Assembly: GCA_903827975.1 (NCBI GenBank)
Contig: CAIKKG010000024.1
Location: forward strand, 523-64,522
Direction: 5' to 3'
Length of the DNA stretch: 64,000 bases
DNA from: an uncultured bacterium
GTDB lineage: Bacteria > Patescibacteriota > Minisyncoccia > UBA6257 > GWB1-50-10
Shown here: positions 34,575 to 63,081 of the stretch, in pieces
How positions within the stretch are numbered: position 1 is the first letter of the stretch
Layout of the letters: every line of letters begins with the position of its first letter
The notes under the pieces: generated by a model
Database searches by the model: none
What the model saw: the letters and a program-made list of their open reading frames with translations, nothing else
What the model was told of the DNA's origin: nothing
Position numbers and translations under genes: made by a program

Positions 34575-37052
34575 ATGAAAAAGAAGAAAGAAGAACCAAT
34601 AGGCGAAATAGTAGTTCAGCGCATTGAGCCGCGCGAGATAACGGACGAGCTCAAAAGTTGCTACCTCGACTATGCGATGTCGGTTATTGTTTCGCGCGCG
34701 CTTCCAGACGTTAGAGATGGACTAAAACCTGTACAGCGCCGCATCCTTTGGGCTATGTGGGATACAGGACTTTTGCATTCCGCAAAATTCAGAAAATCTG
34801 CCAACGTCGTTGGAGAGGTTCTTGGTAAATATCACCCACATGGAGACTCGGCTGTTTATGATGCTATGGCTCGCATGGCACAAGACTTCTCTCTTCGTTA
34901 TCCACTCGTAGATGGTCAGGGTAACTGGGGTTCTATTGATGGTGATGCGCCAGCTGCTATGCGTTATACCGAAGCAAGGCTTACAAAGATTGCTGCGGAA
35001 CTTTTAGTTGATATCGAAAAGGGAACGGTTGATTGGAATCCGAACTATGACAACTCACGTGAGGAGCCAACATTTTTCCCAGCAAAACTTCCACACCTTC
35101 TTCTTAATGGAACTGTTGGTATCGCCGTTGGTATGGCCACATCAATTCCTCCACACAATCTAATGGAGATTGTTGATGCAACTATTTATCTTTCAAATAA
35201 CCCTGATGCAAACACTCGTGAACTTTTGCAGTTTGTTCCCGGACCTGATTTTCCAACTGGTGGAATAATTTATGATAAGCGCGGAATCGAGGAGGCATAT
35301 TCAACAGGACGTGGTGCTATAACAATGCGTGCGGTCACAGAAATTGAAGAACGTAAGGCTGGGAGTTTTCATATTATAGTTTCAGAAATTCCATATCAGG
35401 TTAATAAGTCCGACCTTATAACTAAGATGGCGGAGTTGGCTCAAGAAAAAAGAATTGAGGGTATTCGTGATTTGCGCGATGAGTCTGACCGAGAAGATAA
35501 GGTGCGCATTGTTATTGATTTAAAAAATGATGCGTCTCCGCAAAAAGTTTTAAACCAACTTTTTGAATATACTGAGCTCCAGAAAAATTTTCACTTTAAT
35601 ATGTTGGCGCTCGTAAACGGAATTCAACCACAGATTCTATCACTTAAGGATGTTCTTAGTGAATATATTGCACACAGAAAAGTTATGGTTCGTCGCAGAA
35701 CTGAGTTTGATCTAAAAAAGGCTGAGGACCGTGCTCATATTTTAATTGGTTTGGTTACCGCTCTTGATGTAATAGACAAGATAATCGCAACAATTAAGAA
35801 GTCTAAAGACAAGGAGGCTGCACGCGAAAATTTAATGAAGAATTTCAAACTTTCCGAAATTCAGGCAAATGCAATTTTGGAAATGAAATTGGCTGCACTC
35901 GCTGCACTTGAGAGAATTAAATTGGAAGACGAGTTAAAGGAGAAAAAGAAATTTATTGCTGAGTGTCAGGCGATTTTAAAATCAGCAAAAAGAATGCTCG
36001 AGATTATTCAGTCCGAATTACAAGAATTGAAAGAAACATATTCAAGCCCACGCAGAACCAGAGTTATTGCATCAGGCCTTAAGGAGTTCCGTGAAGAGGA
36101 TCTCGTCCCACAGGAAGAGGTGATTATCACGATGAGTCAGGATGGCTACATAAAGCGCATGTCGGCTGGAATTTTCAAAGCACAGAAACGTGGCGGAAAG
36201 GGACTTATTGGTTCTGAGCTAAAAGATGAGGATTTAGTAAATCAGATTATAACTGCTGATACTCACGATAATATTTTATTCTTCACTGACCATGGACGCG
36301 TATTCCAAACAAAGGCGTATGAGGTTCCAGTTGCAGCAAGAACAGCAAAAGGTAAGTCGGTTCATAATTTCTTAACAATTCCGCCGTCAGAAAAAATCTG
36401 CTCAATTGTGAGTTATTCTGATAAGCAGGAAAAAAATAGTGTGAATAAGTTCTTGGTTATGGCGACTCAGGGCGGTGTAATTAAAAAGACACCGGTCACA
36501 GACTTTGCGAATGTTCGCCGAAGCGGAATTATTGCTCTTAAGTTGAAGGCCGATGATTCGCTTCAGTGGGCTGCATTTTCTGGCGGTGAGGATGAGATTA
36601 TTCTTGTTACTTCAAACGGACAATCAATTCGTTTTAAGGAAAAGGATGTCCGCGCAATGGGAAGAACTGCGGCTGGAACAAAGGCTGCGAGACTTAAGAA
36701 GGGTGATGTTGTTGCTGGATTTGATATCATTCCAAAAGGAACGAGCAATGATACACAGTTTTTAGTTGTAATGGCTCACGGTTTTGCAAAACAAACACCA
36801 TTAAAGGATTACAAGACACAGAAGCGTGGCGGAGGAGGAATTAAGACTGCAAAAATAACAGAAAAAACAGGAAAGGTTATTGCCGCAAGAATTATTTCTG
36901 ATGAGGTTGAGGAGGTTCTGGCATTTTCTTCTAAGGGTCAGGCCTTAAGAACCAAGCTCGCAGACATTAGAGTCGCTGGACGCGCGACGCAAGGTGTAAA
37001 AATAATGAACCTTGATTCAGGGGACTCACTAATGGGAATTGTGTGTCTTTAA
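34575..37052 (+). CDS. gyrA: DNA gyrase subunit A
   Basis: The 825-aa protein has the active-site region [10 protein letters not shown], a GyrA-box-like segment and a C-terminal beta-pinwheel domain. Confidence 0.95.
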
Positions 37053-37112
37053 AAAATTGATTGTTTTATAAACTGGTATAAAAAAAATAAATAGAATTTC
37101 AAAAAACAACTT

Positions 37113-37134
37113 CCACCTATTCATGAATAGGTGG
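37113..37134. promoter_or_regulatory. Perfect 22-nt palindrome CCACCTATTCA|TGAATAGGTGG immediately upstream of a TATAAT (37142-37147) and the start of the SBP-pilin operon
   Basis: It is perfectly self-complementary with no T-tail, so it looks like an operator rather than a terminator. Confidence 0.4.
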
Positions 37135-37153
37135 AATTGCTATAATAAGCTCA

Positions 37154-38452
37154 ATGTCAAACGCTAAGCTCATTATTATTGGTGTGGTCGGGGTTTTAGT
37201 TCTTATTTTTGTTCTAATGCTTATCGGCATTATCCCAGGACTTAAGAGTAATCAACCGAATGCTGCTCCGGCAAGTCTAGTAATGTGGGGCGTAGGAAAT
37301 AGGGCTGGGCAGTTTGATAATGCTTTTCAAGCGTTCAAACAGACCTACCCAAATGTTCAGATTTTATATAAGGGTTTCGATACGCAAGATGAGTATGAAT
37401 CCGCACTAATAGAAGCATTCGCCTCTGGAAATAGTCCGGACATCTTTATGGTCGCAAATGAGAGTTTCCCTCGTTTTGCAAATAAAATAATTCCTTTTTC
37501 TACTGCTGCAATAACACTAACTCAGCTTGAACAGCTATTTCCGCAGACGGTTGAGCAGACATTTGTTCGAAATGGGCAGGCATATGCGCTTCCACTTTCA
37601 ATTGATACACTAGCACTTATTTATAACAAGGATATGTTCAATGCTGCGAGCATTCCTTTTCCACCTAAAACGTGGGAGGAATTTAAAACAATATCTCCGC
37701 GCTTATTGAAAAACGATAAGCTTACTGGCGCGCTTATCACGGCACCAAGCCCAATGGGTGGCTCTGAAAAAAACGTGGCTTACGCATCCGATCTTTTGGG
37801 CACTATCATGATTCAGAATGGAGCTAAAATGGTAAATTCAGATTTTTCGAATGCTTTGTTCTTATCACAGGAGGGTAGGGATGCAATTACTTTTTATACT
37901 CAGTTCGTAGACTCTCCAAATAGCACATCAACATGGAACGATGCGATGCCATACTCGATTGACGCATTCAGTCAGGAGAAAACCGCAATGACATTTGGGT
38001 ACCTGAGTGATGTAAATACAATTCGTTCAAAAAATTCGTTTCTTAATTTTGGCGTAGCGCTTCTTCCACAGTATGAGGGTACTTTAGCGGCCACACATCC
38101 GTTCTATTATGGTCTAGCTGTCTCAATTCAGACTAAGAACAATGATGCGGCTAAAAGATTAATTTTATCTCTTACTACCGACCAGAATATTGCTGAAATG
38201 TATCTCAAGGAAACAAAGACTCCACCAGCCCTTCTATCACTAATTAATCAGGACTTTAATGATTTACAGTTAAATGTTTTTGCGCGTCAGGCTTTAATTG
38301 CTCGCTCATGGCCTAAACCAGATAACCGCGCAGTAAAAGATATTTTTTCTCAGATGATAGATAATATAACCTCTAAAAAGCTCTCAGTTTATTCTGGTAT
38401 CCAGCAGGCGGAAGGCGAAGTTAATACCTTATTCAGAAATAAAAGCTTATAA
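37154..38452 (+). CDS. Extracellular solute-binding protein, ABC-transporter family-1 SBP, membrane-anchored
   Basis: The 432-aa protein has an N-terminal TM anchor and an SBP-like fold, and is the first gene of the operon that continues into the pilin paralogs. Confidence 0.55.
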   Translation: MSNAKLIIIGVVGVLVLIFVLMLIGIIPGLKSNQPNAAPASLVMWGVGNRAGQFDNAFQAFKQTYPNVQILYKGFDTQDEYESALIEAFASGNSPDIFMVANESFPRFANKIIPFSTAAITLTQLEQLFPQTVEQTFVRNGQAYALPLSIDTLALIYNKDMFNAASIPFPPKTWEEFKTISPRLLKNDKLTGALITAPSPMGGSEKNVAYASDLLGTIMIQNGAKMVNSDFSNALFLSQEGRDAITFYTQFVDSPNSTSTWNDAMPYSIDAFSQEKTAMTFGYLSDVNTIRSKNSFLNFGVALLPQYEGTLAATHPFYYGLAVSIQTKNNDAAKRLILSLTTDQNIAEMYLKETKTPPALLSLINQDFNDLQLNVFARQALIARSWPKPDNRAVKDIFSQMIDNITSKKLSVYSGIQQAEGEVNTLFRNKSL

Positions 38453-38462
38453 TAATTAATAT

Positions 38463-38876
38463 ATGAAACAACTAGTTGCTCTAACTGTTTTGTTACTGGT
38501 CGCCTTTGCAATTTTTATGCCCACACACAACGCGCAGGCTTTAAGTATCTGGGCTGGTGCAAAGTGTGGTGGCGCGGTGATTGGTCTGAATGATGGGCCC
38601 ACTGGCGCGTGTAATCTTTGTGATGCAATGATCGTGCTTCGAAACATAATAAACTTCGGGTTTACGCTCGCCATCTCGATAAGCACTGGTATGATTGCGT
38701 GGGGTGCTGTTCGTATGATGACTGCTGGAGGTAGTGAGAGTAACGTTAGTGAGGCAAAGAAAATAATATTTAGTGCCATAACTGGTGTAGCAATTGCACT
38801 TGGTTCGTGGATTATAGTAAATACATTATTCTCCGTGTTTACCGGTTCGTGGAACTGGAATCATTTCACGTGTTAA
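38463..38876 (+). CDS. VirB2/TrbC-like pilin-module protein, paralog 1
   Basis: A signal peptide (…THNAQA) is followed by Cys residues and a hydrophobic-charged loop-hydrophobic hairpin (LAISISTGMIAWGAVRMMTAGGSESNVSEAKKIIFSAITGVAIALGSWIIV). The hairpin is shared with 38893, 39598 and 61648. Confidence 0.6.
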   Translation: MKQLVALTVLLLVAFAIFMPTHNAQALSIWAGAKCGGAVIGLNDGPTGACNLCDAMIVLRNIINFGFTLAISISTGMIAWGAVRMMTAGGSESNVSEAKKIIFSAITGVAIALGSWIIVNTLFSVFTGSWNWNHFTC

Positions 38877-38892
38877 TATAAATAATAAATAA

Positions 38893-39579
38893 ATGAAAAA
38901 ATCTATTTTAAGAAAAATATTGTTTGTTGCACTAATCGTTATCGCGATATCCTTTCCATCGGTTTCTGTGGTCCGCGCACAATGCGCCCCAAACTCTAGT
39001 CAGTGCCCAGCAGAACTGTGTGGTGGAACATCAGGCTTTGTAGATAGCGATGGTGTGTGCTACACATCAGCAAGTTGTACCAACTCAAATATGTGTACTG
39101 GCGTTGTAACTGGTGGTGTATGTAATCCATCAAATGATTGTGCGTCCTCTTGCGGTGGAAGTCAGGGATATGCGGATAGTGAGGGATCATGCTACACAAG
39201 CTCGGCGTGTAATAACTATACTAGGTGTTCTGGTGGAACTAATACTGGTGGTGGCAATGCTGGTAGTGGTAATAATACTGGCGGGTTAGGTATTGGAGGT
39301 GGTGGCAATGCTGGATCAGACATGCAACTACAGAATCCTCTTGGGGTGAGTAGTATAAATGGTCTCATCAACAGAATAATTGATATTCTTATTATTTTAG
39401 GCATTCCTATTGCTAGTGGAATGATTATATGGGCGGCGTTCCTCTTCATGACCTCTGGTGGCGAGCCAGATAAGCTAACAACCGCAAGACACGCAATATT
39501 GTGGACTGTTATTGGATTTGTTATACTTTTAATTGCTAAGGGTATTGCTAGTATTATCAGGTCCGTTATGGGTATATAA
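38893..39579 (+). CDS. Pilin-module protein, paralog 2, with an N-terminal duplicated Cys-rich domain and a Gly-rich linker
   Basis: After the signal peptide come two copies of a roughly 33-aa Cys motif (C..G.SG[FY].DS[DE]G.CYTS..C.N...C.G), then GGNAGSGNNTGG and the conserved C-terminal 2-TM hairpin (LFMTSGGEPDKLTTARHAILWTVIGFVILLIAKG). Confidence 0.6.
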   Translation: MKKSILRKILFVALIVIAISFPSVSVVRAQCAPNSSQCPAELCGGTSGFVDSDGVCYTSASCTNSNMCTGVVTGGVCNPSNDCASSCGGSQGYADSEGSCYTSSACNNYTRCSGGTNTGGGNAGSGNNTGGLGIGGGGNAGSDMQLQNPLGVSSINGLINRIIDILIILGIPIASGMIIWAAFLFMTSGGEPDKLTTARHAILWTVIGFVILLIAKGIASIIRSVMGI

Positions 39580-39597
39580 CTAAAAAAATATTCTGAA

Positions 39598-39999
39598 ATG
39601 AAAGGTCGGATGTTTGTTTATATAATAAATCAATTTATGAAAAATCTAATAAAATATTCAGTACTTGGTCTTTCAATGTTTCCAGTATTAGCATCTGCTG
39701 CTAATGCAATAACTGGTGGTCCTACAAGTGCTGGTGATGTTTGGACTATAATCAATAATCTTTTGGGTTGGATGGTTGGTCTTTTCTTTTTGGCTGCGAC
39801 TGTTTTTATTCTTTTGGCCGGTTTCAAATATATGACTGCGGCTGGAGATGAGTCAAAGGTTACAGAAGCAAAAAACTATCTTACATATGCTGTAATAGGT
39901 ATTGCTGTTGGGCTTTTAGCATTTGCTATCCCAAATATTCTTGCCTCATTCCTAAAAGTTAATGTTCCGACTGGGGGTCCAGCTGGACAGGCCTTCTAA
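39598..39999 (+). CDS. Pilin-module protein, paralog 3. The ATG at 39637 is an alternative start.
   Basis: It has a signal peptide and the conserved hairpin (AGFKYMTAAGDESKVTEAKNYLTYAVIGIAVGLLAFAIP). Confidence 0.6.
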   Translation: MKGRMFVYIINQFMKNLIKYSVLGLSMFPVLASAANAITGGPTSAGDVWTIINNLLGWMVGLFFLAATVFILLAGFKYMTAAGDESKVTEAKNYLTYAVIGIAVGLLAFAIPNILASFLKVNVPTGGPAGQAF

Positions 40000-40017: not shown

Positions 40018-40050
40018 AACCTCCGAGCTTTCATGTTTCGGAGGTTTTTG
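40018..40050 (+). terminator. Terminator of the SBP-pilin operon
   Basis: AAAAACCTCCGAGCTTTCATGTTTCGGAGGTTTTTGG. Confidence 0.7.
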
Positions 40051-40085: not shown

Positions 40086-40167
40086 GCTCCCGTGGCGGAA
40101 CTGGCATACGCGCATGGCTTAGGACCATGTCCCGCAAGGGTTGGAGGTTCAAATCCTCTCGGGAGCA
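40086..40167 (+). tRNA. tRNA-Leu (anticodon TAG)
   Basis: The sequence shows acceptor GCTCCCG/CGGGAGC, a D-arm GGCGGAACTGGCATACGCGC like E. coli tRNA-Leu, anticodon stem CATGG/CCATG around loop CTTAGGA, a long variable arm and T-loop GTTCAAATC. Confidence 0.8.
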
Positions 40168-40173
40168 CAAAGA

Positions 40174-40198
40174 TAAAAACACCAATCTGGTGTTTTTA
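40174..40198 (+). terminator. Terminator after tRNA-Leu
   Basis: AAAAACACCAATCTGGTGTTTTTAG. Confidence 0.65.
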
Positions 40199-40369
40199 GT
40201 TTGTTTATTTAAACTATTTAGATTGGATTGTAAATTATTGACAAGCCTTTAAATTAGTGTTTTGCTCTAATTAATTCCTTGCCGCATGGCATAGGTGGTT
40301 ACTGAAAGGTAGCAACGGGGTCTTTCCTTTCCCTATCAAAAGGATGTTCTTTCCAATAGAAAGGGTCGT

Positions 40370-40663
40370 ATGACCAATACACCCATTCCCGCAATTCGCA
40401 TCTCCATCTCTAGCGGCCCCTCCCGCGAGGAGCTGTTCGATGCTCTTCGCCTGCGCCATGAGCACCGGCCCATCTTGGTCAAGGTCCACCCCTTGGACCA
40501 GAAGCCGATGGATATTAAGTTCATCGTGAACGGAATCGCCGTCGAGGATGGAAGCGGACAGAACTGGCTCATTGAGTTTTTGAACGTGCAGACCCACCAG
40601 ATCGTTCGCGGGTATTACAACTCGCGTACGCGCGCGGGTTGGCTCGACTTCCCTCGAGTGTAG
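40370..40663 (+). CDS. Hypothetical 97-aa protein encoded by a GC-rich (about 57%) stand-alone gene
   Basis: It has a TTGACA -35 at 40238, an AAGGG RBS 5 nt before ATG and its own terminator. It is a GC island between tRNA-Leu and the tyrosine recombinase. Confidence 0.5.
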   Translation: MTNTPIPAIRISISSGPSREELFDALRLRHEHRPILVKVHPLDQKPMDIKFIVNGIAVEDGSGQNWLIEFLNVQTHQIVRGYYNSRTRAGWLDFPRV

Positions 40664-40676
40664 TCATCACATCAAT

Positions 40677-40708
40677 CGCCGCCCGATATATTCGGGCGGT
40701 TTTTTTAT
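40677..40708 (+). terminator. Rho-independent terminator
   Basis: CGCCGCCCGATATATTCGGGCGGTTTTTTT. Confidence 0.7.
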
Positions 40709-40713
40709 ATAAA

Positions 40714-41604
40714 TTATTCCTCCTTCCTTCTAACTCCGTGAAATGCTTCGTGTACCTCATGAAGCTCTTTATTTGTAAGATGAGTATAGACCTGAGTTGT
40801 AGAAATATTTGCGTGACCCAGTAATTCCTGCACCGAGCGAAGATCTGCTCCATTAATTAATAGATCTGTTGCAAATGAGTGGCGTAACTCATGAGGATGA
40901 ACTCGCTTCGCAATCCCAGCCTTCCTCGCATATGTATCAACTAAACGCTGAACAGTTCTTGGAATTATTCTACCTAAAATCTTACCTGTTTTTGCAATAC
41001 TAACAAAAAGTGCCTCCTCAGCATCTGTTCGTTTTTCTAAATACTCTTTAATTGCTTTTTTTGAACTTGTAGAAAGAAACACAACACGAATCTTCTCTCC
41101 CTTTCCTCGAACAGAAAGCTCACCACGAGTTAGATCTATATAGCGTGGAAGATTGCATATCTCTGAGACTCGGAGCCCCGTTGAAAACAGAACCTCGAGT
41201 ACGGCCCTATCGCGAAGTGCACGAAGCGAGTCTCCTTCTGGTGCCGCAAGCAATCGTTCGAGCTCTTTATACTCCAAAACCTCTATATCTCTCCTTGCAA
41301 CCTTCGGTAGTTCTATTGTTTCTGGCGCTAGAGACTTTATTCCACGGCGCACAAGGTACTTTAAAAAATTGCGAAGTGAGATTACGTAGTAATTTTGCGT
41401 TATTTTTTTAATATTCTTGCGGGCTAGCGTAATGCGGAATGATCGCACAACCGAGTCTGTTATCTCGCCTGGAGTCTCAACACCAGTCTCCTTTAAAAAT
41501 ACCGTTAGGTAGTGCGAATAATTTTCACGCGTTTTAAGAGAACGGTTCTTTTCAATCTCAAGATAGTCCAAATACTCCTGAAAAAGCTTCTTAATCTCGC
41601 TCAT
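40714..41604 (-). CDS. xerD: Tyrosine site-specific recombinase of the XerC/XerD type
   Basis: The 296-aa protein has an N-terminal core-binding domain (LDYLEIEKNRSLKTRENY) and a C-terminal catalytic region HPHELRHSFATDLLINGADLRSVQELLGHANISTTQVYTHL, with the R...HxxR...Y residues. Confidence 0.8.
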   Translation of the reverse strand: MSEIKKLFQEYLDYLEIEKNRSLKTRENYSHYLTVFLKETGVETPGEITDSVVRSFRITLARKNIKKITQNYYVISLRNFLKYLVRRGIKSLAPETIELPKVARRDIEVLEYKELERLLAAPEGDSLRALRDRAVLEVLFSTGLRVSEICNLPRYIDLTRGELSVRGKGEKIRVVFLSTSSKKAIKEYLEKRTDAEEALFVSIAKTGKILGRIIPRTVQRLVDTYARKAGIAKRVHPHELRHSFATDLLINGADLRSVQELLGHANISTTQVYTHLTNKELHEVHEAFHGVRRKEE

Positions 41605-51188: not shown

Positions 51189-53198
51189 ATGCAGACCAGA
51201 AAAATAAGAATACTCACATCATTTCTCGCGGTTGTAATTCTCTCGAACTCGCTTTTTTTTGCGTTTCCTCAAAAATCTCTTGCCCAGACTAGTGCTGATG
51301 GTGGTGCTCAGGAAATTGCAGCAAAGTGTGGACTCACAAACGCTACTACGTGGATAGCGGGTAAGCTTTCGGCGGTTGTAACTGGTGCGACTCCAAACAC
51401 TCAGGTTTCTGTAAAGAATGATGAGGCAGCCTCAACCTCTCTTTGGGATGGAGCAAAAGAATGTCTCCTTGCGCTTTGGAATGCTCTTATAAAGATAGCT
51501 TTTAACATGTTTAAAAAGCGCTTACTTGATAGGCTCACCGATGATCTGGTTGGTTGGATAAGTGGAAAAACTGGCAAGCCAAAGTTTATCACTAATTATA
51601 AGGACATGTTAAAGAACACGGCTGATGCTGCTCTTGGAGATACTATTCGTGCAATCGGAGCTGGAAAGTTGTGCGACAATAAACTTAGTGTTCAGCTTCA
51701 ATTAAATCTTCAAGCACTGGATTCTCAAGATTTTTCTAAGAGAGTGGACTGCACGCTTTCTCAGGTTGTTAAGAACATTGGGGCTTTTGGAGATAATTTT
51801 AAAAATGGAAGTTGGATTGGGTATCAGGAGGTCAATTCGCTTCAAAATAATAAGTATGGACTACAACTTTTGGCTATGGATAATCTCGCGCGAGGTCAGG
51901 CAAAGCAGACCGATCTTTTAAAAACCGAGATGGGGGGCTCAAACGGATTCCTATCCACTAAACTTTGTAATAAATGGACAATAATAGGACAAAAGAATGA
52001 TTGTAATACAGGAAGGGGAACGCTCTGCCCAGCTGAGATTGAGCTTGGCTCATTTATCTCTCCACGTGGCAATGATACATACCTAGATGCGGAACAGGAT
52101 GGCTCAGCACTAGCCATAAAATTCCAAGGCGACTCATCAATGAGCTCTTCACTAGCTCAGGTTCCTCCTAATGCTCAGATTAATAAGCTTTTGTGTAAGC
52201 CGGAGGACCAGAAAATAACAACACCTGGATCAACGCTCGCCGCCTCACTAAGCAACTCTCTTGATGCTGATACGAGGAAATTAATAGGTGCTGACGACCT
52301 AACTCCATATTTAGCAAAAATATTTGATGCTGCTTTTAATCGTGTAATAAAAGAGGGTGTTAGAGGGCTCGCAGAAGCTAGCACGAATATTTTCAGTCAG
52401 AGTAGTACTGGCACACAACCACAGTCATATCAAACGAGCTCTCAGTGCTCCTCAATTCGTACCAATGGAACAACTCAATGCTCATTAATACTCACTCAGG
52501 GCGCTCCACAGTGTATTGCCGAGAAGAAGCTTGGTGCTACGGATGCTGATTATGCAAAATGTAATTTAGCCGCTAAGAATGATTGTAATGCCGCCGCGGC
52601 ATCTGCTTGTGATCGCGATGCTATCTATGTTGGTTATGGAGGTTCAATGGTTAGCACCGCCACATCGGACTTACAGTTAAATTCTGTGTCCACATCTACA
52701 ATCTATAACCTTGCGTCCACAACACTTAATACAATTAATACAAAGATTCCACCAATACTTGCTGAGGTTCAGGCTTTGTATGTTCAGTACCAAGGAAGCT
52801 TGATGCTTCTCTCTAGTTGTGAAAAGGCCAAAACCCTACCAAAAGAGGTGTGCCCAACTACATCACTACTTCTAACTCAGTTAATACCCGTCTCCTCACG
52901 CATTAATGGTGTTCCGATGGCAGTAACAACATATAAAAATGAATTGTTGGAAATTATTGGAAAATTAAACAACCCATCACTTAAAGCTGCTGATGCATCA
53001 TATCTTTCTGTTCGGGTCCAGCTTATTTCAACTGATATAACAGATACAATAGACAAATTTACTTCTGATAAATCCATGTTGACGGCTATAAACTTAACAG
53101 AAGAATATAATTCATGCTCAGCAGCAATACCATCAGCGAATAAATATTACATATGCCCAGGCACTAGCACTCCGGGTGGTGGTCCGATTCAGCCGTAA
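51189..53198 (+). CDS. Large exported Cys-rich protein of the T4SS-like operon
   Basis: The 669-aa protein has a signal peptide (…SLAQTSA) and more than 20 Cys residues spread through a Ser/Thr/Asn-rich sequence. Confidence 0.45.
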   Translation: MQTRKIRILTSFLAVVILSNSLFFAFPQKSLAQTSADGGAQEIAAKCGLTNATTWIAGKLSAVVTGATPNTQVSVKNDEAASTSLWDGAKECLLALWNALIKIAFNMFKKRLLDRLTDDLVGWISGKTGKPKFITNYKDMLKNTADAALGDTIRAIGAGKLCDNKLSVQLQLNLQALDSQDFSKRVDCTLSQVVKNIGAFGDNFKNGSWIGYQEVNSLQNNKYGLQLLAMDNLARGQAKQTDLLKTEMGGSNGFLSTKLCNKWTIIGQKNDCNTGRGTLCPAEIELGSFISPRGNDTYLDAEQDGSALAIKFQGDSSMSSSLAQVPPNAQINKLLCKPEDQKITTPGSTLAASLSNSLDADTRKLIGADDLTPYLAKIFDAAFNRVIKEGVRGLAEASTNIFSQSSTGTQPQSYQTSSQCSSIRTNGTTQCSLILTQGAPQCIAEKKLGATDADYAKCNLAAKNDCNAAAASACDRDAIYVGYGGSMVSTATSDLQLNSVSTSTIYNLASTTLNTINTKIPPILAEVQALYVQYQGSLMLLSSCEKAKTLPKEVCPTTSLLLTQLIPVSSRINGVPMAVTTYKNELLEIIGKLNNPSLKAADASYLSVRVQLISTDITDTIDKFTSDKSMLTAINLTEEYNSCSAAIPSANKYYICPGTSTPGGGPIQP

Positions 53199-53206: not shown

Positions 53207-55237
53207 ATGAAGCTTCTCAATAAAAAACTGTTACTGGTTTTAGGAATCGTTCTTCTTTCTGGACTTGTCGTCCCTCATTTAGCGCATGCAGCTGGTATGA
53301 TGGAACAGGCACTTACAGATGTAGTAACCTATACCTTTAAATTCATTACCTATATTTTTGCATATATAGGTTCGGTATTATTCAGTTTTGCCGGTATGCT
53401 AGTGGACTACACACTGAGACTTAATATGACTGTTGGGGATACTGAAAAGAATCTTCTTCTTGGTGTTGGTTGGGGCATCACAAAAGATATTGCAAACCTT
53501 GGCTTCGTGCTCGCTATGATTATTATTGCGTTCGCAACAATAATCGGAAATGAAAGTTATGGATACAAAAAATTACTTGCTAATTTAATTGGTGCTGCGA
53601 TTGCTGTAAACTTCAGTCTTGCAATTGCTGGGGTATTTATCGATTTCTCTCATGTTATTACTGTATTTTTTATAAATAAAATAAGTACTACTGGCGCTTC
53701 TGGCATGGCTGAGCAGATGGCAAATGCGTTTAGCGTTCAGAATTTTCTATTAGAGGACTCTAACAATCCACTACCTCCGAATCCGTCTGAGGAGAGTGGG
53801 ACAATGTCACGCCTAAGTACTGCGGTTGTAATCTCTCTTGTGAGTTTAGTCTTTGTACTTGTGTTCACAATAACGGCTGCAATTATATTTTTAATATTTG
53901 CAATAATGCTTCTCGCTCGATATGTCTGGCTATCATTCCTTCTTATTATCGCTCCGATAACATGGTTGTTCTGGGTTATCCCTGGAATGAGTGGTAAGTT
54001 CGGAGAGTGGTGGAGTAACTTCTTAAAACAGGTTTTCTTTGCACCAGCAATGACGTTCTTCCTATATCTTGCTTTTATGAGTGTGCAGGGTCTTGCCGAA
54101 AAACCAGCCACGGGTGCTTTCTTCAAAGATGGCGCGCTTGCAGCAATAATAAGTTCTGGAGCTAATATGGTTGTTTTGATTGGAATCCTTGTTGGTGGAC
54201 TTATAACAGCTGAAAAAATGGGCGCAACTGGCGCAAAAATGGGAATGGAGAGATTGTCTGCTTTGGGTGGCGCCTCAAAGGATTATGCAGGGAGTATAGC
54301 TAAGAAATATGGTAAGAAGGTTGCAGAAACAAAAGCTGTTAAGAGTGTGCAGAGTGCAGCCCTTCGTGTTGGCTCTAGCGCAAGGAAGCTTGCTGAATAT
54401 AAACCAACAAGTAGAACTGGTAAGATTTTGACCGCTGTAACAGGGCTAGGTCTTGCAAAGTCTGTTGTTGGACTTGGAGGAGAAAAATTACAAAATATTG
54501 GTGGCGTGCCAGTAAATCCGGACTCGCTTGGTTCAAGGGCCTGGTCTGCGGTCTGGGGTAAGTATCCTGATAATCGCGCTCAATCTAAGAAGGATGCTGA
54601 TGAGAGGGAACAAAACAAGGGAGCTGAGGAGCTCACGGCTGATCATGAGAAACTACGCACCGAGCGACAGAGGCTTGTTGATAATGGCGTAAGTGAGAAA
54701 GACCCAAGAATTGTCACTATGGATAAGCAACTTGGAAAGCTAAAATCAAGTGTTGTAGAGAAAACAAGCCTACCAAAAGACGTAGAAGGATTAATTAACA
54801 AAGAAAAGGAATTGAAGTTGAAGTTGGAAGAATTGGCAGCTGGTGGTAGTGACATCTCTGTGATTAAAAAGCAACTTGAGAAAGCAACTGATGAACTTGA
54901 TAAGGCTCAAAGAGAGGACTCGAAAATAACACCGGCTAGTAGGGCGTGGAAGAGCCACCGCATTACAAAAGAAGCCACTAGAATGGCTGGTATAATAGGC
55001 GGAAAAATAAAACCTGGTGAGCCAGACCCAGACACAGACACAGATTCCGCTATAGCACAAGAGAAATTATGGCGCGAAATTGATACGCAGAAGAAGCCTA
55101 ACTCCAAACCAGCTTGGGCGGAACGCGTAATTAAACTCGACGCTGCTCTAACAGAAGCTACTGCTGCCCACCTTCCACCTGACGCACTTAAGTACATTGG
55201 GGATTTAAAGGCTGAGGCGATTGATAAGAGTACATAA
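53207..55237 (+). CDS. VirB6/TrbL-like polytopic inner-membrane channel protein with a C-terminal coiled-coil charged tail
   Basis: The 676-aa protein has a signal or TM N-terminus, at least 6 TM helices across the first 350 residues, then a K/E-rich coiled coil. Confidence 0.5.
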   Translation: MKLLNKKLLLVLGIVLLSGLVVPHLAHAAGMMEQALTDVVTYTFKFITYIFAYIGSVLFSFAGMLVDYTLRLNMTVGDTEKNLLLGVGWGITKDIANLGFVLAMIIIAFATIIGNESYGYKKLLANLIGAAIAVNFSLAIAGVFIDFSHVITVFFINKISTTGASGMAEQMANAFSVQNFLLEDSNNPLPPNPSEESGTMSRLSTAVVISLVSLVFVLVFTITAAIIFLIFAIMLLARYVWLSFLLIIAPITWLFWVIPGMSGKFGEWWSNFLKQVFFAPAMTFFLYLAFMSVQGLAEKPATGAFFKDGALAAIISSGANMVVLIGILVGGLITAEKMGATGAKMGMERLSALGGASKDYAGSIAKKYGKKVAETKAVKSVQSAALRVGSSARKLAEYKPTSRTGKILTAVTGLGLAKSVVGLGGEKLQNIGGVPVNPDSLGSRAWSAVWGKYPDNRAQSKKDADEREQNKGAEELTADHEKLRTERQRLVDNGVSEKDPRIVTMDKQLGKLKSSVVEKTSLPKDVEGLINKEKELKLKLEELAAGGSDISVIKKQLEKATDELDKAQREDSKITPASRAWKSHRITKEATRMAGIIGGKIKPGEPDPDTDTDSAIAQEKLWREIDTQKKPNSKPAWAERVIKLDAALTEATAAHLPPDALKYIGDLKAEAIDKST

Positions 55238-56447: not shown

Positions 56448-56930
56448 ATGGCAGAATTCCAAGTTCCGCAATTTATCGAGGAGAAACCAAAAATCGTTGG
56501 CCCACTAACCATCGTTCAGTTTTTGTATATTGGTTCTGGTGCGGCAATTTCTCTTATAAGTTATTACGCTTTTAATACTATTTTATGGTTAATTATCTCA
56601 ATAATAGTTGTTGGAATATCAGTTGCGCTCGCCTTTGTTAAGGTTAATGGCCAGGACCTGCCAGTTGTTGCTTTGTCTGCTTTTCAGTTTATATGGGGCC
56701 CAAGAAAATACACTTGGCAAAGAGCGATGGAGCAGACGACTTTTGATACTTCTGATTTGGAGAAGATTCAGGTAATAAGAAAAAATATCAGCATTCAAGA
56801 TAAAATTAAATCTATTGCGCTTGGTATTACAACTGGAAGTATTGAGAGAACGAAAGCCGGCGGTACAAAATTTCAGTCTGTTACCTACATAACAGGGGAG
56901 CATAAGGTTGCGAAGAGAGTTGATTACTAA
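56448..56930 (+). CDS. VirB3/PrgI-like small two-TM protein
   Basis: The 160-aa protein starts MAEFQVPQFIEEKPKIVGPLTIVQFLYIGSGAAISLISYY… with two adjacent TM helices, and sits immediately upstream of the VirB4-type ATPase as in canonical T4SS loci. Confidence 0.5.
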   Translation: MAEFQVPQFIEEKPKIVGPLTIVQFLYIGSGAAISLISYYAFNTILWLIISIIVVGISVALAFVKVNGQDLPVVALSAFQFIWGPRKYTWQRAMEQTTFDTSDLEKIQVIRKNISIQDKIKSIALGITTGSIERTKAGGTKFQSVTYITGEHKVAKRVDY

Positions 56931-56959
56931 ACCGCGTAAATACGGTACAATATTAATAC

Positions 56960-57598
56960 ATGGCTGATATAAGCATCCCAACACAACAATTCGTTGACGT
57001 AAAAGAAGTACGCGATGGCGTTTTGTATTTAAAGTCTGGTGGTATCCGCAAAATACTTATCGTCGGCGGAATTAACTTTGATCTCAAATCAGAAGGTGAG
57101 CAAAATACAATACTTGCAAGTTTCCAGAATTTTTTAAATACAATTGATTTTCCTATACAACTTCTCATTCACTCAAGAAAGGTTAATGTTGAGAGTTATC
57201 TTTCGAAAATGGTTCAGTTAAAAGATAAAGAGGATAATGAACTTTTAAAAATACAGATTGGTGAATATATAAACTTCATACGTTCTTTTGTTGATGAGAA
57301 CGCAATAATTAGTAAGGTATTTTTAGTTGTTGTCCCATATGAGTCTGCTTCTGCGAAATCAAGTTCATCTGGTTTTTTTGATATTTTTAAAAAACAGACG
57401 AAGGTTGAGATTAATGAGTCCGAAAATGCTGCAATAGAGCAACTTAATCATAGGGTTTCTGAGGTGACCGACGGATTAATGCAGGTTGGTCTTAATGTTA
57501 CATCACTTAATAGTGATGAGATTACTGAGTTGTTTTACAATATGTACAATCCACAACTAGCCGAGAAGAAAAATATGGACTTAATAAAAGAATCATAA
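56960..57598 (+). CDS. VirB4/TraE-type conjugation-family ATPase, N-terminal domain ORF
   Basis: MADISIPTQQFVDVKEVRDGVLYLKSGGIRKILIVGGINFDLKSEGEQNTILASFQNFLNTIDFPIQLLIH matches the N-terminal membrane-proximal domain of Gram-positive-type VirB4 (TcpF/PrgJ-like). It ends with TAA-GAA-TAA, in frame with the next ORF. Confidence 0.6.
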   Translation: MADISIPTQQFVDVKEVRDGVLYLKSGGIRKILIVGGINFDLKSEGEQNTILASFQNFLNTIDFPIQLLIHSRKVNVESYLSKMVQLKDKEDNELLKIQIGEYINFIRSFVDENAIISKVFLVVVPYESASAKSSSSGFFDIFKKQTKVEINESENAAIEQLNHRVSEVTDGLMQVGLNVTSLNSDEITELFYNMYNPQLAEKKNMDLIKES

Positions 57599-57607
57599 GA
57601 ATAAAAA

Positions 57608-59359
57608 ATGAAGATACAAATTCCACAAACTTATAAACCATCATCGAAAGACCTACCAAATATTGTAGCGCCGTCAGGTCTTGAGGTAGATGCTAATTAT
57701 TTGAAACTAGGTGATTACTTTGTAAAAACTATTTTTATTTTTACGTACCCTCGCTTCGTGGTTTCTGGTTGGTTCTCTCCTATTATAAATATTTCGGAGA
57801 TGATGGATATCTCTATTTTCGTTCACCCAATGGAGACTGGCGCGGCCTTGCGCGACCTACAAAAGAAGGTTGCTCAAGTGCAGTCTGAGCTTTCTGAGAA
57901 GGAATCGAAGGGTATGGTTCGCGATCCACTACTTGAAACAGCTTATCAGGACATTGAGAGTCTAAGAGATTCATTGATGCAGGCGAGGGAGAAACTTTTT
58001 AAGGTTGGTGTTTATATTACTTTATATGGGCAGAGCCTTGAGGCGCTTACAAAATTGGAGAATGAGATAGAATCCTTACTTGAAAGTAAGTTGATATATG
58101 TTAAACCCGCGCTTTTCAAACAACTTGAAGGTTTTAATTCTATTCTTCCACTTTGTACTGATAAACTACTAACACACACACCACTTAATTCTGGGCCAGC
58201 ATCGTCCCTTTTTCCCTTCGTCTCTCCAGACCTTACATCAGATAAGGGAATTATGTATGGGATTAATATACACAACAGCAGCCTCGTTATATTCGATCGC
58301 TTCTCCCTTGAAAATGCCAACCAGGTTATATTTGCAAAATCAGGTGCTGGTAAATCATACACTGCAAAACTTTTGATTCTTCGCTCTCTCATGGTTGGAA
58401 CTAATGTTATTGTTATTGATCCTGAGAATGAGTATCAGAATCTTTCAAGCGCTATTGGTGGAAGTTATTTTAAAATCTCACTTACTTCATCGAGCCACAT
58501 TAATCCCTTTGACATACCAATCATACCGGAGGGGGATGAGCCGGCGGACGTTTTTAAATCACACATATTAAATTTGTCTGGCTTGGTTAAATTAATGCTT
58601 GGCGCAATATCACCTGAAGAGGATGCTCTACTTGATAAGGCTCTTACTGATACATATGCATCGCGCGATATTACCGCGGAAAACTTTGGTCAAACAAAGG
58701 AAATGGATGCACCACTCTTAGAAGATTTGCAGGTTATCTTACAAAACAACAAGGGTGGTTTCCAACTTGCACAACGCCTTGAAAAATTCACACATGGAAC
58801 ATATGCGGGTTTTACAAATGCTCCAACAAACGTTGATTTTAAAAATCGTTTGATTGTTTTCTCGATTCGCGACCTTGATGAGGAGTTGCGACCAATCGCG
58901 ATGTATATTGTTTTGAACTTTGTTTGGAATCTTGTTCGTGCTGAGCTTCGACCACGATTTCTTATTGTTGATGAGGCGTGGATTATGATGAAGTTTAAAG
59001 ACAGCGCCTCTTTCTTGTTTGGACTTGTTAAGCGTGCTCGTAAATACTACCTTGGAATCACAACCATTACACAGGACGTTGAGGACTTTTTGAAGTCTGA
59101 GTATGGTAAGCCTATCGTCACAAACTCAGCAACCCAGATTTTAATGAAACAATCTCCAGCATCTATTGATTCAGTTGCTAGTGCGTTTAGTCTTACAGAG
59201 GGTGAGCGCGGCTTACTACTTGAGGCGAGTGTTGGAGAGGGATTGTTTTTTGCGGGCGCAAAACATGTTGCTATTAAAATTATTGCGTCATACACAGAGG
59301 ATCAAATAATAACAACAAAACCTGATCAGATTTTAGAAATTAAGGGTCTAAAACAATAA
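57608..59359 (+). CDS. VirB4/TraE-type ATPase, C-terminal ATPase domain ORF
   Basis: Walker A AKSGAGKSYT, Walker B FLIVDEAW and C-terminal motifs are present. The frame is the same as the preceding ORF. Confidence 0.7.
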   Translation: MKIQIPQTYKPSSKDLPNIVAPSGLEVDANYLKLGDYFVKTIFIFTYPRFVVSGWFSPIINISEMMDISIFVHPMETGAALRDLQKKVAQVQSELSEKESKGMVRDPLLETAYQDIESLRDSLMQAREKLFKVGVYITLYGQSLEALTKLENEIESLLESKLIYVKPALFKQLEGFNSILPLCTDKLLTHTPLNSGPASSLFPFVSPDLTSDKGIMYGINIHNSSLVIFDRFSLENANQVIFAKSGAGKSYTAKLLILRSLMVGTNVIVIDPENEYQNLSSAIGGSYFKISLTSSSHINPFDIPIIPEGDEPADVFKSHILNLSGLVKLMLGAISPEEDALLDKALTDTYASRDITAENFGQTKEMDAPLLEDLQVILQNNKGGFQLAQRLEKFTHGTYAGFTNAPTNVDFKNRLIVFSIRDLDEELRPIAMYIVLNFVWNLVRAELRPRFLIVDEAWIMMKFKDSASFLFGLVKRARKYYLGITTITQDVEDFLKSEYGKPIVTNSATQILMKQSPASIDSVASAFSLTEGERGLLLEASVGEGLFFAGAKHVAIKIIASYTEDQIITTKPDQILEIKGLKQ

Positions 59360-60458: not shown

Positions 60459-61670
60459 ATGAAACCAATTTATAAAATTCTTATTACTTTAGTTGTAATA
60501 ATCATCGTCATATTCCTTTCATATTTCTTGTGGACAAAGTTTTTTGCGCCAAAGTCTGTGACGCCACAAGAGCCTGGAACTGGTGTGATAATTACACCTC
60601 CTAGTGATAATAATGGTCAGACTGGAGGAGGTGATAATCCTCCGGGTGGCGCGCCAGGCACATCAACACCTACAACATCTAACGTGGATGAGTATTTATT
60701 TAAAAAACTTTCTGATAAGCCGGCTCTGGCTTTTTGGGTCTCTATAACTGGTAATACGGCTTTTTATGTTTCTGAGTCTGGCGTAGTTATGGAGGCTAAG
60801 GATGGAGAGGACTCTGTAGTTTCAAAACAACCAATCTCTAATTTTATAAGTTTAGAGGCGTCTCCATCTGGTGAGAAGGTTATTCTTTCCTTTGGAAGTC
60901 CGTCAAATATTCAATTGGCAATTTTTGATTCTGTTGATAAGGTTTTGCGCCCACTTCCAAAAGAAATCTTAAGTGCTTCGTGGGCTGGAACTGATAATCA
61001 GTTGGTTGGTGTCACACAACAAAATGATGTAACTCTACTCTCATTAATAAATATCTCAAAACAACCCTACACTTACAAGACGCTTGTAACAAATTTTTCT
61101 ATAAAGGATGCTTTGTTTTCTGCCAAGTCAGCAACTGAGATTTTAATCTCTGAAAAACCTTCATCTCACTCTCTATCTGGCGTCTGGCAACTAGATACTG
61201 ACACCGGCGTTATGACACTTGTTGTGAGCCCTGCTCTTGGTTCTTTTATAAGGTGGGCTAGTGGAAAGGATTTAATGTTTAAGTTCGCATCACCAAATAA
61301 GTTTTCAATACTGGATCGTTCCTTTGGTGAAATATCGCCGGTGTTATTTACAACGCTACCAAATAAATGTGATGGTGGTCTTGATGTGATTTATTGTTTT
61401 ATTCCTAAAGACAAGGGTGTTTTCTCAAATACAAACTCGATGCCTGACGATTATTTTATGAATAATATCTTCACTAGTGACGATTTTTATAAAATCTCTC
61501 CGTCCTCCGGCATTGAATCACTTATAATGGCTGGTGGGTCGGGTAAGATTCCGGTTATTGATGCGGATAATGTCTCATATGCAAACTCATCAACTTATTT
61601 TATTAATAAGTATGATAATTATGTTTATGCAATTCAAAAAACAACAAATGAAGTTATTAATGATTACTAA
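60459..61670 (+). CDS. Hypothetical membrane-anchored extracytoplasmic protein of the T4SS-like operon
   Basis: The 403-aa protein has an N-terminal TM anchor and a Gly/Pro/Thr linker. Confidence 0.45.
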   Translation: MKPIYKILITLVVIIIVIFLSYFLWTKFFAPKSVTPQEPGTGVIITPPSDNNGQTGGGDNPPGGAPGTSTPTTSNVDEYLFKKLSDKPALAFWVSITGNTAFYVSESGVVMEAKDGEDSVVSKQPISNFISLEASPSGEKVILSFGSPSNIQLAIFDSVDKVLRPLPKEILSASWAGTDNQLVGVTQQNDVTLLSLINISKQPYTYKTLVTNFSIKDALFSAKSATEILISEKPSSHSLSGVWQLDTDTGVMTLVVSPALGSFIRWASGKDLMFKFASPNKFSILDRSFGEISPVLFTTLPNKCDGGLDVIYCFIPKDKGVFSNTNSMPDDYFMNNIFTSDDFYKISPSSGIESLIMAGGSGKIPVIDADNVSYANSSTYFINKYDNYVYAIQKTTNEVINDY

Positions 61671-63081
61671 AAAGGTTTTACTGTCCTTGTTTGTGGTTGT
61701 TGCTGTGTTTGCTCCAATGTACTTATTTGCAGCGGAAACAGCATCGACTGGCCCAACACCGATTGTTGTTACAATGTCATCACCAATGCCGTGCATTCCA
61801 GTTCCTTTCATGGGTGGGAACACCTGCTCACAACCCGCAGGAGACTCAGCTATTCAGACTTATATAAAACTTTTGTATCAATTCGCGGTTGGAATCTCTG
61901 GTATTGTTGCTGTAGGAATGATTGTGTGGGGATCTATTCAGATTTCTTTATTTAGCGAGAGTATAACCCAGAAAAGTGAGGGGAGGGATAAAATTACGTC
62001 AGCAATAATTGGTGTTATTCTTCTTCTTGGTTCTTATTTGCTACTTAATACTATAAACCCGAGAATTGTTCAGCTTGGTCAGACACTTACAACTGTTAAA
62101 CAAGCAAAGCCGTCATCAGACATTGCAAAGGTTGGTGTGTCGAGTTGTGGAACATCAACTTTAATATCAGGAGCGGTTGGTACACCAATAGATTTTAATG
62201 TTAAACCAGACGCTGGTAATACTTGTAAATATAGAAAGCTTTTTGTATATAGAGATGGTTTTACAATTTCTGGTATGGATGCTGCATATTATGGTGGTTC
62301 TGGTGATGTTCAAATAGCGGCGCAGTCTGTTATTTGGCTCTACCCTTATCGCGTGAAGGGGGCTGTGGAAACATTTGATAGCAACGGCACACTAGCAAGC
62401 GCTAAGTGTATTGTATATGCATATAAAGAGCCTAGTATGACGAGTATTCGTTTTACAAACCTACAAAATACAATTGAGCCTTGTGTGTTAAGTGACAAAC
62501 AGGAAGATGGGTATGTTGGTGGTCCTGGGTCAGGAGTTGGTAACGTTTCTGGAGATGTAAAGGATTTAGCCAATCAATTAGGTAGTCCAAACTCTACTGT
62601 GAAATTCTCTACGGACAATTCTTGTAATCCTCCCGGCTCTGCCGCAAAAAATATTCTTTATTCTATGCAAAACGGAACGGCGCCTTTTGTCTGCTCTGCT
62701 GGTTGTCAAACAAACAAAACAGAGTGCACACAAAATGGGGCTTATCCTGAGGCTTCTATATTAAAAGCAATTATAGCCCTGCAAAATTCTAAAACAACAG
62801 TTTCGACGGTCACTAGTTTAACTGGTGGTGATCATTCGGCTAATTCTGGGCATTACCAAGGTACAGCTTTTGATCTCAGTGTAGGATCAAGCAACACAGA
62901 TGATTGGAATAATGTTATGAAAATTTTAAATACTTCGGGTGTTACAGCATACTGCGAATACCAAGGACCTGGGGAGGATAAAGCTAAACTTCACACAAAA
63001 TGTGCAACTGGAATAAGTGGTGGGCATCTCCATGTACAGGTCAATAAAAACAGTAATGCTATAAACAATGGGACTCCATAA
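61648..63081 (+). CDS. Fusion protein with an N-terminal VirB2/TrbC-like pilin module and a C-terminal M15-family zinc peptidoglycan peptidase domain
   Basis: After the signal peptide comes the conserved hairpin AVGISGIVAVGMIVWGSIQISLFSESITQKSEGRDKITSAIIGVILLLGSYLLLNT, paralogous to 38463, 38893 and 39598. The C-terminus has SGHYQGTAFDL and GGHLHVQV (H-x6-D ... H-x-H zinc site of M15, VanY/endolysin type). The start was trimmed from the ORF-track 61534 to the ATG after the upstream stop. Confidence 0.6.
   Translation: MKLLMITKKVLLSLFVVVAVFAPMYLFAAETASTGPTPIVVTMSSPMPCIPVPFMGGNTCSQPAGDSAIQTYIKLLYQFAVGISGIVAVGMIVWGSIQISLFSESITQKSEGRDKITSAIIGVILLLGSYLLLNTINPRIVQLGQTLTTVKQAKPSSDIAKVGVSSCGTSTLISGAVGTPIDFNVKPDAGNTCKYRKLFVYRDGFTISGMDAAYYGGSGDVQIAAQSVIWLYPYRVKGAVETFDSNGTLASAKCIVYAYKEPSMTSIRFTNLQNTIEPCVLSDKQEDGYVGGPGSGVGNVSGDVKDLANQLGSPNSTVKFSTDNSCNPPGSAAKNILYSMQNGTAPFVCSAGCQTNKTECTQNGAYPEASILKAIIALQNSKTTVSTVTSLTGGDHSANSGHYQGTAFDLSVGSSNTDDWNNVMKILNTSGVTAYCEYQGPGEDKAKLHTKCATGISGGHLHVQVNKNSNAINNGTP

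Follow-up and report, generated by a model that had tools for sequence, protein, structure and literature searches.

A VirB2-like pilin of an uncultured Patescibacterium carrying a tandem six-cysteine module between its signal peptide and its hairpin

Introduction

Why does the middle gene of a small pilin array encode two cysteine-rich repeats ahead of the pilin hairpin, and what could such a product do? The question is raised by an open reading frame (ORF) at 38893-39579 (+), here called paralog 2, in a 64,000-nucleotide stretch of contig CAIKKG010000024.1 (GenBank assembly GCA_903827975.1, positions 523 to 64,522), which is referred to below as the window. Paralog 2 may be a modular VirB2-like pilin, specific to its lineage, that belongs to a type IV secretion system (T4SS) of Patescibacteria; its module would be displayed for binding or host recognition. 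We give this reading an even chance of being correct.

VirB2-like pilins (PF18895, PF04956) occur widely among Patescibacteria, with 441 described arrays that comprise 2-11 divergent genes at a mean identity of 25% (Quinonero-Coronel et al. 2025, PMC12102498). Southlakia epibionticum cannot grow as an epibiont without its pilin array (Wang et al. 2023, PMC10633639; review PMC12857230). Filament polymerization has not been directly demonstrated for any Patescibacteria VirB2-like pilin (PMC12102498, PMC12857230). A term search of PMC12102498, PMC10633639, and PMC12857230 found no pilin described as having a Cys-rich module at its N-terminus.

Results

Paralog 2 and its domain architecture

The ORF encodes a 228-amino-acid (aa) protein, exactly as stated in the initial annotation of this DNA, which was made from the sequence alone. 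Its translation is identical to MCX6788395.1, "pilin [Candidatus Jorgensenbacteria bacterium]", and the organism is an uncultured groundwater bacterium of Candidatus Jorgensenbacteria. Its genome is represented in groundwater assemblies of the ERZ1426xxx and SRR206986xx series and in GCA_026396755.1. The gene was seen on 14 contigs from independent metagenome assemblies, each time with identical gene neighbours, and therefore it is real and not an assembly artefact or a chimera. The parts of the protein are, from the N-terminus to the C-terminus:

38893..38979 (+), Sec-type signal peptide, aa 1-29 (sequence: MKKSILRK n-region, hydrophobic core, and VRA↓Q cleavage motif)
38980..39117 (+), Cys-rich repeat 1, aa 30-75, with Cys 31, 38, 43, 56, 62, and 68 (92.6 bits to the two-copy hidden Markov model, HMM, described below)
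39118..39231 (+), Cys-rich repeat 2, aa 76-113, with Cys 77, 83, 87, 100, 106, and 112 (78 bits to the same HMM)
39232..39321 (+), Gly/Asn-rich flexible linker, aa 114-143 (sequence; predicted local distance difference test score, pLDDT, ~30)
39322..39576 (+), VirB2-like pilin domain, aa 144-228 (PF18895 match and AlphaFold2 hairpin)

This architecture is near certain. The same order of signal peptide, tandem Cys-rich module, Gly-rich linker, and conserved pilin hairpin had been proposed in the initial annotation, and it is borne out by the ORF and by the PF18895 match. The signal peptide MKKSILRKILFVALIVIAISFPSVSVVRA↓Q lies in a Kyte-Doolittle hydrophobic segment covering aa 1-32, and inspection of the N-terminal sequence revealed neither a lipobox nor a prepilin-peptidase motif.

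The tandem six-cysteine module

The 12 Cys of paralog 2 are divided into six and six, with a shared framework C-x5/6-C-x3/4-C-x12-C-x5-C-x5-C, and the mature protein has no Cys outside the module. The repeat unit is ~45 aa long (aa 30-75 versus aa 76-121, the alignment of repeat 2 extending into the linker). Local alignment of the two halves gave a BLOSUM62 score of 110, compared with 35.8 +/- 6.7 for composition-preserving shuffles (z = 11), and none of the 2000 shuffles reached 110. All 12 Cys positions match up between the copies, and the core CGG-x2-G[FY]xDS[DE]GxCYTS is kept in both. The tandem internal repeats reported in the initial annotation are therefore genuine, and its proviso that self-alignment might reveal no significant repeat did not come true; the dimensions given there, 33 aa with 5-6 Cys each, have to be revised to ~45 aa with 6 Cys, the first Cys of each unit having been overlooked. 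The two-copy HMM recovered both repeats (93 and 78 bits) and matched nothing further in the window or in 40 related loci, where no other 6-Cys module was found. The 84 aa of the module include 16 Ser, 12 Cys, 11 Gly, 7 Asn, and 7 Thr; its net charge is acidic, and hydrophobic core residues are nearly absent.

The two copies share 44% identity at the protein level and 54% at the DNA level. The proportion of synonymous differences (pS) is 0.71, which is saturated, and that of nonsynonymous differences (pN) is 0.38; no DNA-level repeat was detected for the module. Because synonymous sites are saturated, DNA identity is 54%, and no DNA-level repeat is left, the duplication is old, with both copies held under constraint. 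The recent expansion of the module once suggested for this gene is contradicted by the same data.

Constraint was also evaluated within the species, the window being compared with eight alleles taken from other assemblies. Over the full gene, 7 variable sites are synonymous and 2 nonsynonymous, the latter being T116A in the linker and G217S in helix 2; a single change, which is synonymous, falls within aa 30-113. In L010 (GCA_037131435.1), the most divergent strain, the nonsynonymous versus synonymous differences are 1 versus 5 in paralog 2, compared with 7 versus 1 in paralog 3 and 3 versus 1 in paralog 1, the pilin genes on either side. The counts of allele and strain differences are small; as far as they go, they speak for coding in the + frame and for constraint on the module. 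The short pilins, paralogs 1 and 3, may be under diversifying selection, on equally small counts. The initial annotation had also allowed for the region being unconserved in homologues: the homologues proved to be without the region altogether, while it is kept between the copies and within the species. With all Cys positions matched and no amino-acid change in eight alleles, the module does not look like junk.

The linker behaves differently from the module. Of 37 aa in the Gly-rich linker noticed in the initial annotation, GGTNTGGGNAGSGNNTGGLGIGGGGNAGS, 15 are Gly and 6 are Asn. The linker holds a perfect 17-nt direct repeat, GGTGGTGGCAATGCTGG, at 39247-39263 and 39298-39314, encoding GGGNAG twice, and 4 of the 9 polymorphic sites of the gene fall in the 30-aa linker. 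For these two reasons the linker appears to be where the gene has evolved recently and is prone to slippage, and it is the sole part with a recent small duplication.

The pilin scaffold and the site of insertion

The hairpin of paralog 2 matches PF18895 (T4SS_pilin) with 43.3 bits (cut-off 26.6; E 4e-11) at aa 152-222, corresponding to profile positions 2-71 of 71. The match to the NCBIfam ICE pilin-like family (4.6e-6) was below the cut-off, as was that to PF04956 (TrbC/VirB2; 21.9 bits against a cut-off of 27.9). In the Foldseek comparison of the hairpin, the T-pilus chain 8exh_A was ranked 27 with an E-value of 9.2, which is not significant, and helical hairpins match non-specifically. The hairpin consists of the conserved LQNPLG motif, helix 1 (aa 155-187), the polar loop SGGEPDKLTTARH, and helix 2 (aa 192-227); AlphaFold2 predicted both helices with pLDDT 80-87, and the linker with ~30. 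Hydrophobic segments were found at aa 1-32, 155-189, and 195-228, with the loop between the last two, which is the topology of PF18895-type pilins.

A profile search with the hairpin retrieved 1012 proteins, and lengths and motifs were counted in the best 120. These are 93-153 aa long (median 112). An N-P-L-type motif is present in 117 of them, at median position 28 and at position 66 at most, versus aa 148 in paralog 2, and 113 of these 117 are Cys-free. The small size of PF18895-type pilins (~100-130 aa), with the NPLG-type motif at the mature N-terminus, is thus not shared by the 228-aa paralog 2. The closest relatives of the hairpin, P0002 and P0004, are short pilins with 42-48% identity, and the scaffold is a pilin of the "NPLG...WAAFLFMTSGG" subfamily. 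Because the relatives are short and have the motif directly after the signal peptide, while it is found at aa 148 in paralog 2, the 114 aa of module and linker are an insertion exactly at the junction of signal peptide and mature pilin.

Other members of the subfamily have N-terminal extensions at the same place: a Gly/Asn-rich one of 40 aa in P0003, and one of 65 aa with one Cys pair and a Pro/Thr/Gln-rich (PTQ) linker in the L023 protein (4716-5252). The N-terminus is therefore probably a variable display site within this hairpin subfamily. Gly-rich linkers join the hairpin to other modules in L037, L043, and P0005. P0005, with a Cys-containing N-terminus, a GGGGGNGGGGNAGS linker, and a hairpin, was considered as a relative of the module; it has the same architecture, and its N-terminal part shows no homology (BLASTP E 3.3).

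The module as a sequence orphan

A word-indexed homologue search with the 92-aa module as a query came back empty and missed even the identical entry (184 bits in phmmer). Negative results from this search with Cys-rich or low-complexity queries are unreliable, and this one was discarded in favour of an exhaustive search. The exhaustive phmmer search of aa 29-120 against 1.84 billion representative proteins found only paralog 2 itself and one spurious match: P0006 (E 5.6e-4) is a 485-aa repeat protein whose matched stretches are Cys-free, and it was rejected as a homologue. The module is thus a sequence orphan, having no homologue among ~15 billion proteins, and is confined to one species-level lineage.

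The initial annotation had proposed a comparison with EGF- and defensin-like folds. The best matches of the module in a Pfam scan were at chance level (EB module, E 0.17; AtDEF-like, E 0.8), and sequence searches of PDB returned nothing relevant. In the AlphaFold2 model of the full protein (7-row alignment) the module is poorly modelled. Repeat 1 alone, with repeat 2 as an alignment row, was predicted as a small three-stranded sheet or beta-hairpin at low confidence (pLDDT 58.5); the module pLDDT was 34-58 over both AlphaFold2 runs. Foldseek with the repeat model against PDB gave 0 matches, a fold test limited by the pLDDT of 58. EGF, beta-defensins, and knottins resemble the module in having six Cys per ~40-aa unit, and in the small beta-hairpin predicted here. 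The first four spacings (x6, x4, x12, x5) fall within the ranges of EGF and beta-defensins. The last spacing, C-x5-C between C5 and C6, is unlike that of EGF (C-x-C-x8-C) and that of defensins (CC), and no profile or fold match places the module in the EGF-like, defensin-like, or knottin group. A fold of these kinds is thus not supported, and the module is a small candidate new fold.

Two further resemblances were rejected. For a beta-helix like that of antifreeze proteins, suggested by the 6-residue Cys spacing CTNSxxC, there is no PDB sequence match, and only three Cys per repeat follow that period. For metallothionein-like metal binding, CxC and CC motifs are missing and Cys makes up just 14% of the module.

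The pilin array and its probable operon

Three hairpin genes lie in tandem (38463-38876, 38893-39579, and 39598-39999), with paralog 2 in the middle. They share 24-30% identity, and the gaps between array genes are 10-18 bp. The genes form a PF18895-type tandem array of divergent paralogs in a VirB4-encoding region, though the array is not contiguous with virB4. The other elements are:

37154..38452 (+), gene for a membrane-anchored protein similar to the solute-binding protein (SBP) family SBP_bac_1, at the head of the array and 10 bp upstream of paralog 1 (gene context)
38463..38876 (+), pilin paralog 1, 137 aa, of the "C...CxxC...NIINF...C-terminal Cys" subfamily (PF18895, 26.7 bits, barely above the cut-off)
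39598..39999 (+), pilin paralog 3, 133 aa, a short canonical Cys-free pilin, with the start at 39610 or 39637 according to gene callers (PF18895, E 4.4e-14)
40020..40049 (+), stem-loop and T-run after paralog 3, CCTCCGA...TCGGAGG TTTTT (sequence and alignment)

The stem-loop is likely to be the terminator of an SBP-pilin operon. The motif subfamily of paralog 1 recurs in metagenome loci, often fused to hydrolase-like domains.

The order gyrA - SBP - pilin array (34575-39999 in the window) is conserved in three distant genomes of the Candidate Phyla Radiation (CPR), with SBP proteins 35-37% identical (gene context):

L006, 5263-12091, with seven tandem pilin genes
L007, 498-3363
L008, 5040-12268

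The conservation of gene order across distant CPR genomes suggests that the SBP-like protein and the pilins may be functionally linked. A mobile-element origin of the array was rejected: the neighbours are core housekeeping genes (gyrA, rpsO, and pnp), and the order is conserved in distant CPR genomes.

Downstream of the array, a strain-variable insert of ~450 bp was observed at 40172-40700, directly 3' of tRNA-Leu(tag) (40086-40168). Its GC content is 53%, versus ~40% in the flanks. It includes an ORF at 40370-40663 (97 aa, no Pfam match), is missing from strain L010, and adjoins a XerC-like tyrosine recombinase gene at 40714-41604 (-). It may be a tiny integrated element or its remnant.

The T4SS cluster and other hairpin fusions

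A monoderm-type T4SS cluster is located at 50.4-63.1 kb of the window, 11-24 kb downstream of the array. The following genes were recognized:

56448-56930 (+), PrgI/VirB3-like gene (Pfam PrgI, 7.5e-7)
Between the VirB3-like and VirB4-like genes, in the T4SS core 56448..59359 (+), a gene for an uncharacterized 212-aa protein
57608-59359 (+), VirB4-like ATPase (TraG P-loop, 4.5e-26, and AAA_10)
61660..63081 (+; listed ORF 61534-63081), a fourth hairpin protein of 473 aa, with a signal peptide, a T4SS_pilin hairpin, and a Cys-rich C-terminal domain of ~330 aa (PF18895, 6e-8)

The cluster also includes large unannotated membrane and secreted proteins. At its head, 51189-53198 and 53207-55237 (+) encode proteins of 669 and 676 aa without Pfam matches. 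The former is secreted and Cys-rich. The latter combines many transmembrane helices with a long, charged tail at the C-terminus and is possibly a channel protein similar to VirB6/PrgH. The genes jag and yidC adjoin the cluster, which suggests nearness to the replication origin, and the remainder of the window consists of housekeeping genes. Neither a relaxase nor a coupling protein was seen in the window.

The fusion protein at 61660-63081 shows that in this genome the hairpin carries additional extracellular domains. Its end, SGHYQGTAFDL...GGHLHVQV, resembles by eye the H-x6-D / HxH pattern of LAS metallopeptidases. Pfam matches only the hairpin, a PDB sequence search gave one marginal "adhesin" match for the C-terminus (E 7.5e-4), and the metallopeptidase reading stays unconfirmed.

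In the 40 related loci, 126 hairpin ORFs were found with a median length of 123 aa, and 23 of them (18%) are at least 180 aa long. Nearly all of the long ones have a C-terminal extension and belong to the paralog-1-like "C...CTVCD...NIINF" ("CGT...CTVCD...NIINF") subfamily. In many of the long ORFs, a Gly-rich linker connects the hairpin with its module. The hairpin proteins with C-terminally fused Cys-rich domains include:

L008, 9384-10334
L022, 137-1303
L043, 3743-4771
L017, 245-1108
L007, 2185-3363

Some of the C-terminal fusions have lytic-transglycosylase-like motifs (AESSGN...YGLMQV), with a weak SLT_3 match for L008 9384-10334; others have metallopeptidase-like motifs, which were read by eye and are unconfirmed. 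The fusion genes usually sit directly upstream of a short NPLG-type pilin, and may encode VirB1-like wall hydrolases anchored by the pilin hairpin. The hairpin is thus often used to carry extracellular modules. Large modules at the N-terminus are rare in this sample, being represented by paralog 2 and one other architecture.

Discussion

A proposed displayed domain on a pilin scaffold

The most economical reading of paralog 2 is a displayed, disulfide-stabilized extracellular domain, because the Cys number is even (six and six), no Cys is found elsewhere in the mature protein, a hydrophobic core is scant, and the protein has a Sec signal and a positive-inside loop. The protein would be exported by Sec and cleaved at A29↓Q30 (VRA↓Q), leaving a membrane-embedded hairpin whose loop, SGGEPDKLTTARH, is cytoplasmic and whose termini are both extracellular. 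Oxidative folding would generate three disulfides per mini-domain. The hairpin would then be extracted and polymerized by the VirB4-type machine encoded 18 kb away. In the solved F-type and T-type conjugative pili, the termini face outward and the loop faces the lumen. By the same arrangement the N-terminal module would face the exterior of the filament, where on its tether it could contact the host cell or a substrate. The adhesin role proposed in the initial annotation would be plausible on this reading. Such a module would be analogous in its working, and not homologous, to the grafted modules of modular type IV pilins.

Several points weigh against a displayed module on a pilus. A pilus, a disulfide, or a ligand has never been observed for paralog 2 or any close protein. 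The module has no homologue, and therefore no function can be transferred to it; its predicted structure is of low confidence (pLDDT 34-58) and without a fold match. Such organisms usually inhabit anoxic groundwater, and no thiol-disulfide oxidoreductase is encoded in the window. A module of ~9 kDa on each subunit might hinder helical packing, and the hydrolase-like hairpin fusions look more like membrane or T4SS anchors than filament subunits. A distance of 11-18 kb separates the array from the T4SS genes, and the two are thus not neighbours.

The last but one of these points leads to the best of the alternatives, which is possible but rather unlikely: paralog 2 may be a membrane-anchored surface protein whose hairpin serves as a two-helix membrane or T4SS anchor and never polymerizes, with the module held on a Gly tether, for example at the contact site between T4SS and host. 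The hairpin ORFs of at least 180 aa, 18% of those in related loci, carry large extra domains, and several of these have the lytic-transglycosylase-like or metallopeptidase-like motifs that make filament subunits improbable; the 473-aa fusion of the window is among the long ORFs. However, those fusions are C-terminal and belong to another hairpin subfamily, the CxxC/NIINF (paralog 1) type, whereas short canonical pilins are the nearest relatives (42-48%) of the paralog 2 hairpin, which has retained the NPLG motif at their N-terminus.

An improbable alternative is a structural or protective coat, in which inter-subunit disulfides or a dense hydrophilic shell would stabilize the filament or hide it from phages or from the defences of the host. 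It would suit the extremely small-residue, polar, and net acidic composition, and the fast evolution of paralogs 1 and 3 between strains, which suggests surface selection on the array. The even six plus six Cys with identical spacing and the conserved aromatic/acidic beta-hairpin motif G[FY]xDS[DE]GxCYTS look instead like a folded unit with intradomain disulfides, and the module is invariant within the species.

That the module is a pro-region is very unlikely. In such a case, a Cys-rich peptide would be cut near GNAGS↓DMQLQNPLG and released as a toxin, a bacteriocin-like peptide, or a signal, while the pilin matures normally. The mature N-terminus of the short relatives lies 3-6 residues before NPLG, and the small residues A-G-S precede the matching site here. 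The Cys spacing is loosely similar to that of beta-defensins or EGF, the Pfam match to AtDEF-like being at chance level. However, no hydrophobic segment precedes the site, so that cleavage by signal peptidase I is not expected; the window encodes no dedicated protease and no lanthipeptide or bacteriocin maturation gene (no LanB, LanC, LanM, peptidase-ABC exporter, or similar), the neighbours being housekeeping genes; and no homology to a peptide family was found. Equally far-fetched is a functionless low-complexity insertion, slippage-expanded and tolerated at an exposed N-terminus: the region is an orphan, the adjoining linker has slippage-type repeats and polymorphism, and low-complexity N-terminal extensions occur in relatives (P0003), but all six Cys and 44% identity are retained between the copies despite synonymous saturation, the repeat z-score is 11, and no nonsynonymous change is seen in the module in eight alleles.

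Comparison with known systems

The array shares with other Patescibacteria VirB2-like arrays the PF18895 hairpin, Sec signals, divergent tandem paralogs (24-30%), and a monoderm-type T4SS with VirB3/PrgI-like and VirB4-like proteins. Paralog 2 differs from their pilins by its length of 228 aa and the 114-aa insertion of two 6-Cys mini-domains and a Gly/Asn tether, and the array lies outside the T4SS cluster, beside gyrA and SBP and at a distance of 11-18 kb from virB4. Classical conjugative pilins (TraA of F, VirB2 of Ti, TrbC of RP4, PF04956) have the same two-helix hairpin with a short polar loop, but they have long leader peptides and no folded extracellular domain, and the organism encoding paralog 2 is a monoderm.

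Modular type IV pilins, such as PilB and PilC of Streptococcus sanguinis, carry grafted adhesive modules and belong to a filament system that is unrelated to the T4SS. A polymerizing pilin with an extra exposed binding module would be the shared design, by analogy only. Modular type IV pilins have a class III signal peptide, processing by prepilin peptidase, and a C-terminal graft, whereas paralog 2 has a Sec signal, a VirB2-type hairpin, and an N-terminal graft; its N-terminus is of the classical Sec type, without the class III motif (G↓F/M-x-x-x-E).

The CPR fusions of a hairpin with a hydrolase-like domain (61660-63081 in the window, L008 9384-10334, L022, and L043) resemble paralog 2 in that a hairpin carries a Cys-rich extracellular domain via a Gly/Ser-rich linker. 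They differ in that the extra domain is C-terminal, 150-330 aa long, and equipped with enzyme-like motifs, that the hairpin belongs to the CxxC/NIINF subfamily, and that the domain is not homologous to the module of paralog 2. Pilin arrays of Patescibacteria, which are ultrasmall bacteria, are already published; what is new is the orphan tandem 6-Cys module on such a pilin, which is unusual but does not break the category.

Significance

The module is confined to a single species-level lineage; the organism is uncultured and the function is inferred. With this caveat, and on a reading less likely than not, paralog 2 would be the first VirB2-like pilin to display a folded and disulfide-rich domain with a new fold, either at the tip of a pilus or along its length. 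The module would then determine host recognition in a species-specific manner in an epibiotic CPR bacterium, and the mature N-terminus of Patescibacteria pilins would be an evolvable "display socket" for de novo modules. Southlakia epibionticum, the only genetically tractable Patescibacterium, depends on its T4SS pilin array for its epibiotic life. Among the many divergent pilin paralogs, one with a constrained grafted module offers a specific candidate for the component in contact with the host cell. In the sequences compared here, one subfamily has N-terminal extensions of 40, 65, and 114 aa and another has C-terminal hydrolase-like domains, which suggests that the hairpin is a general carrier of surface modules. 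Modular pilins of this sort could help to direct the search in CPR genomes for determinants of host specificity.

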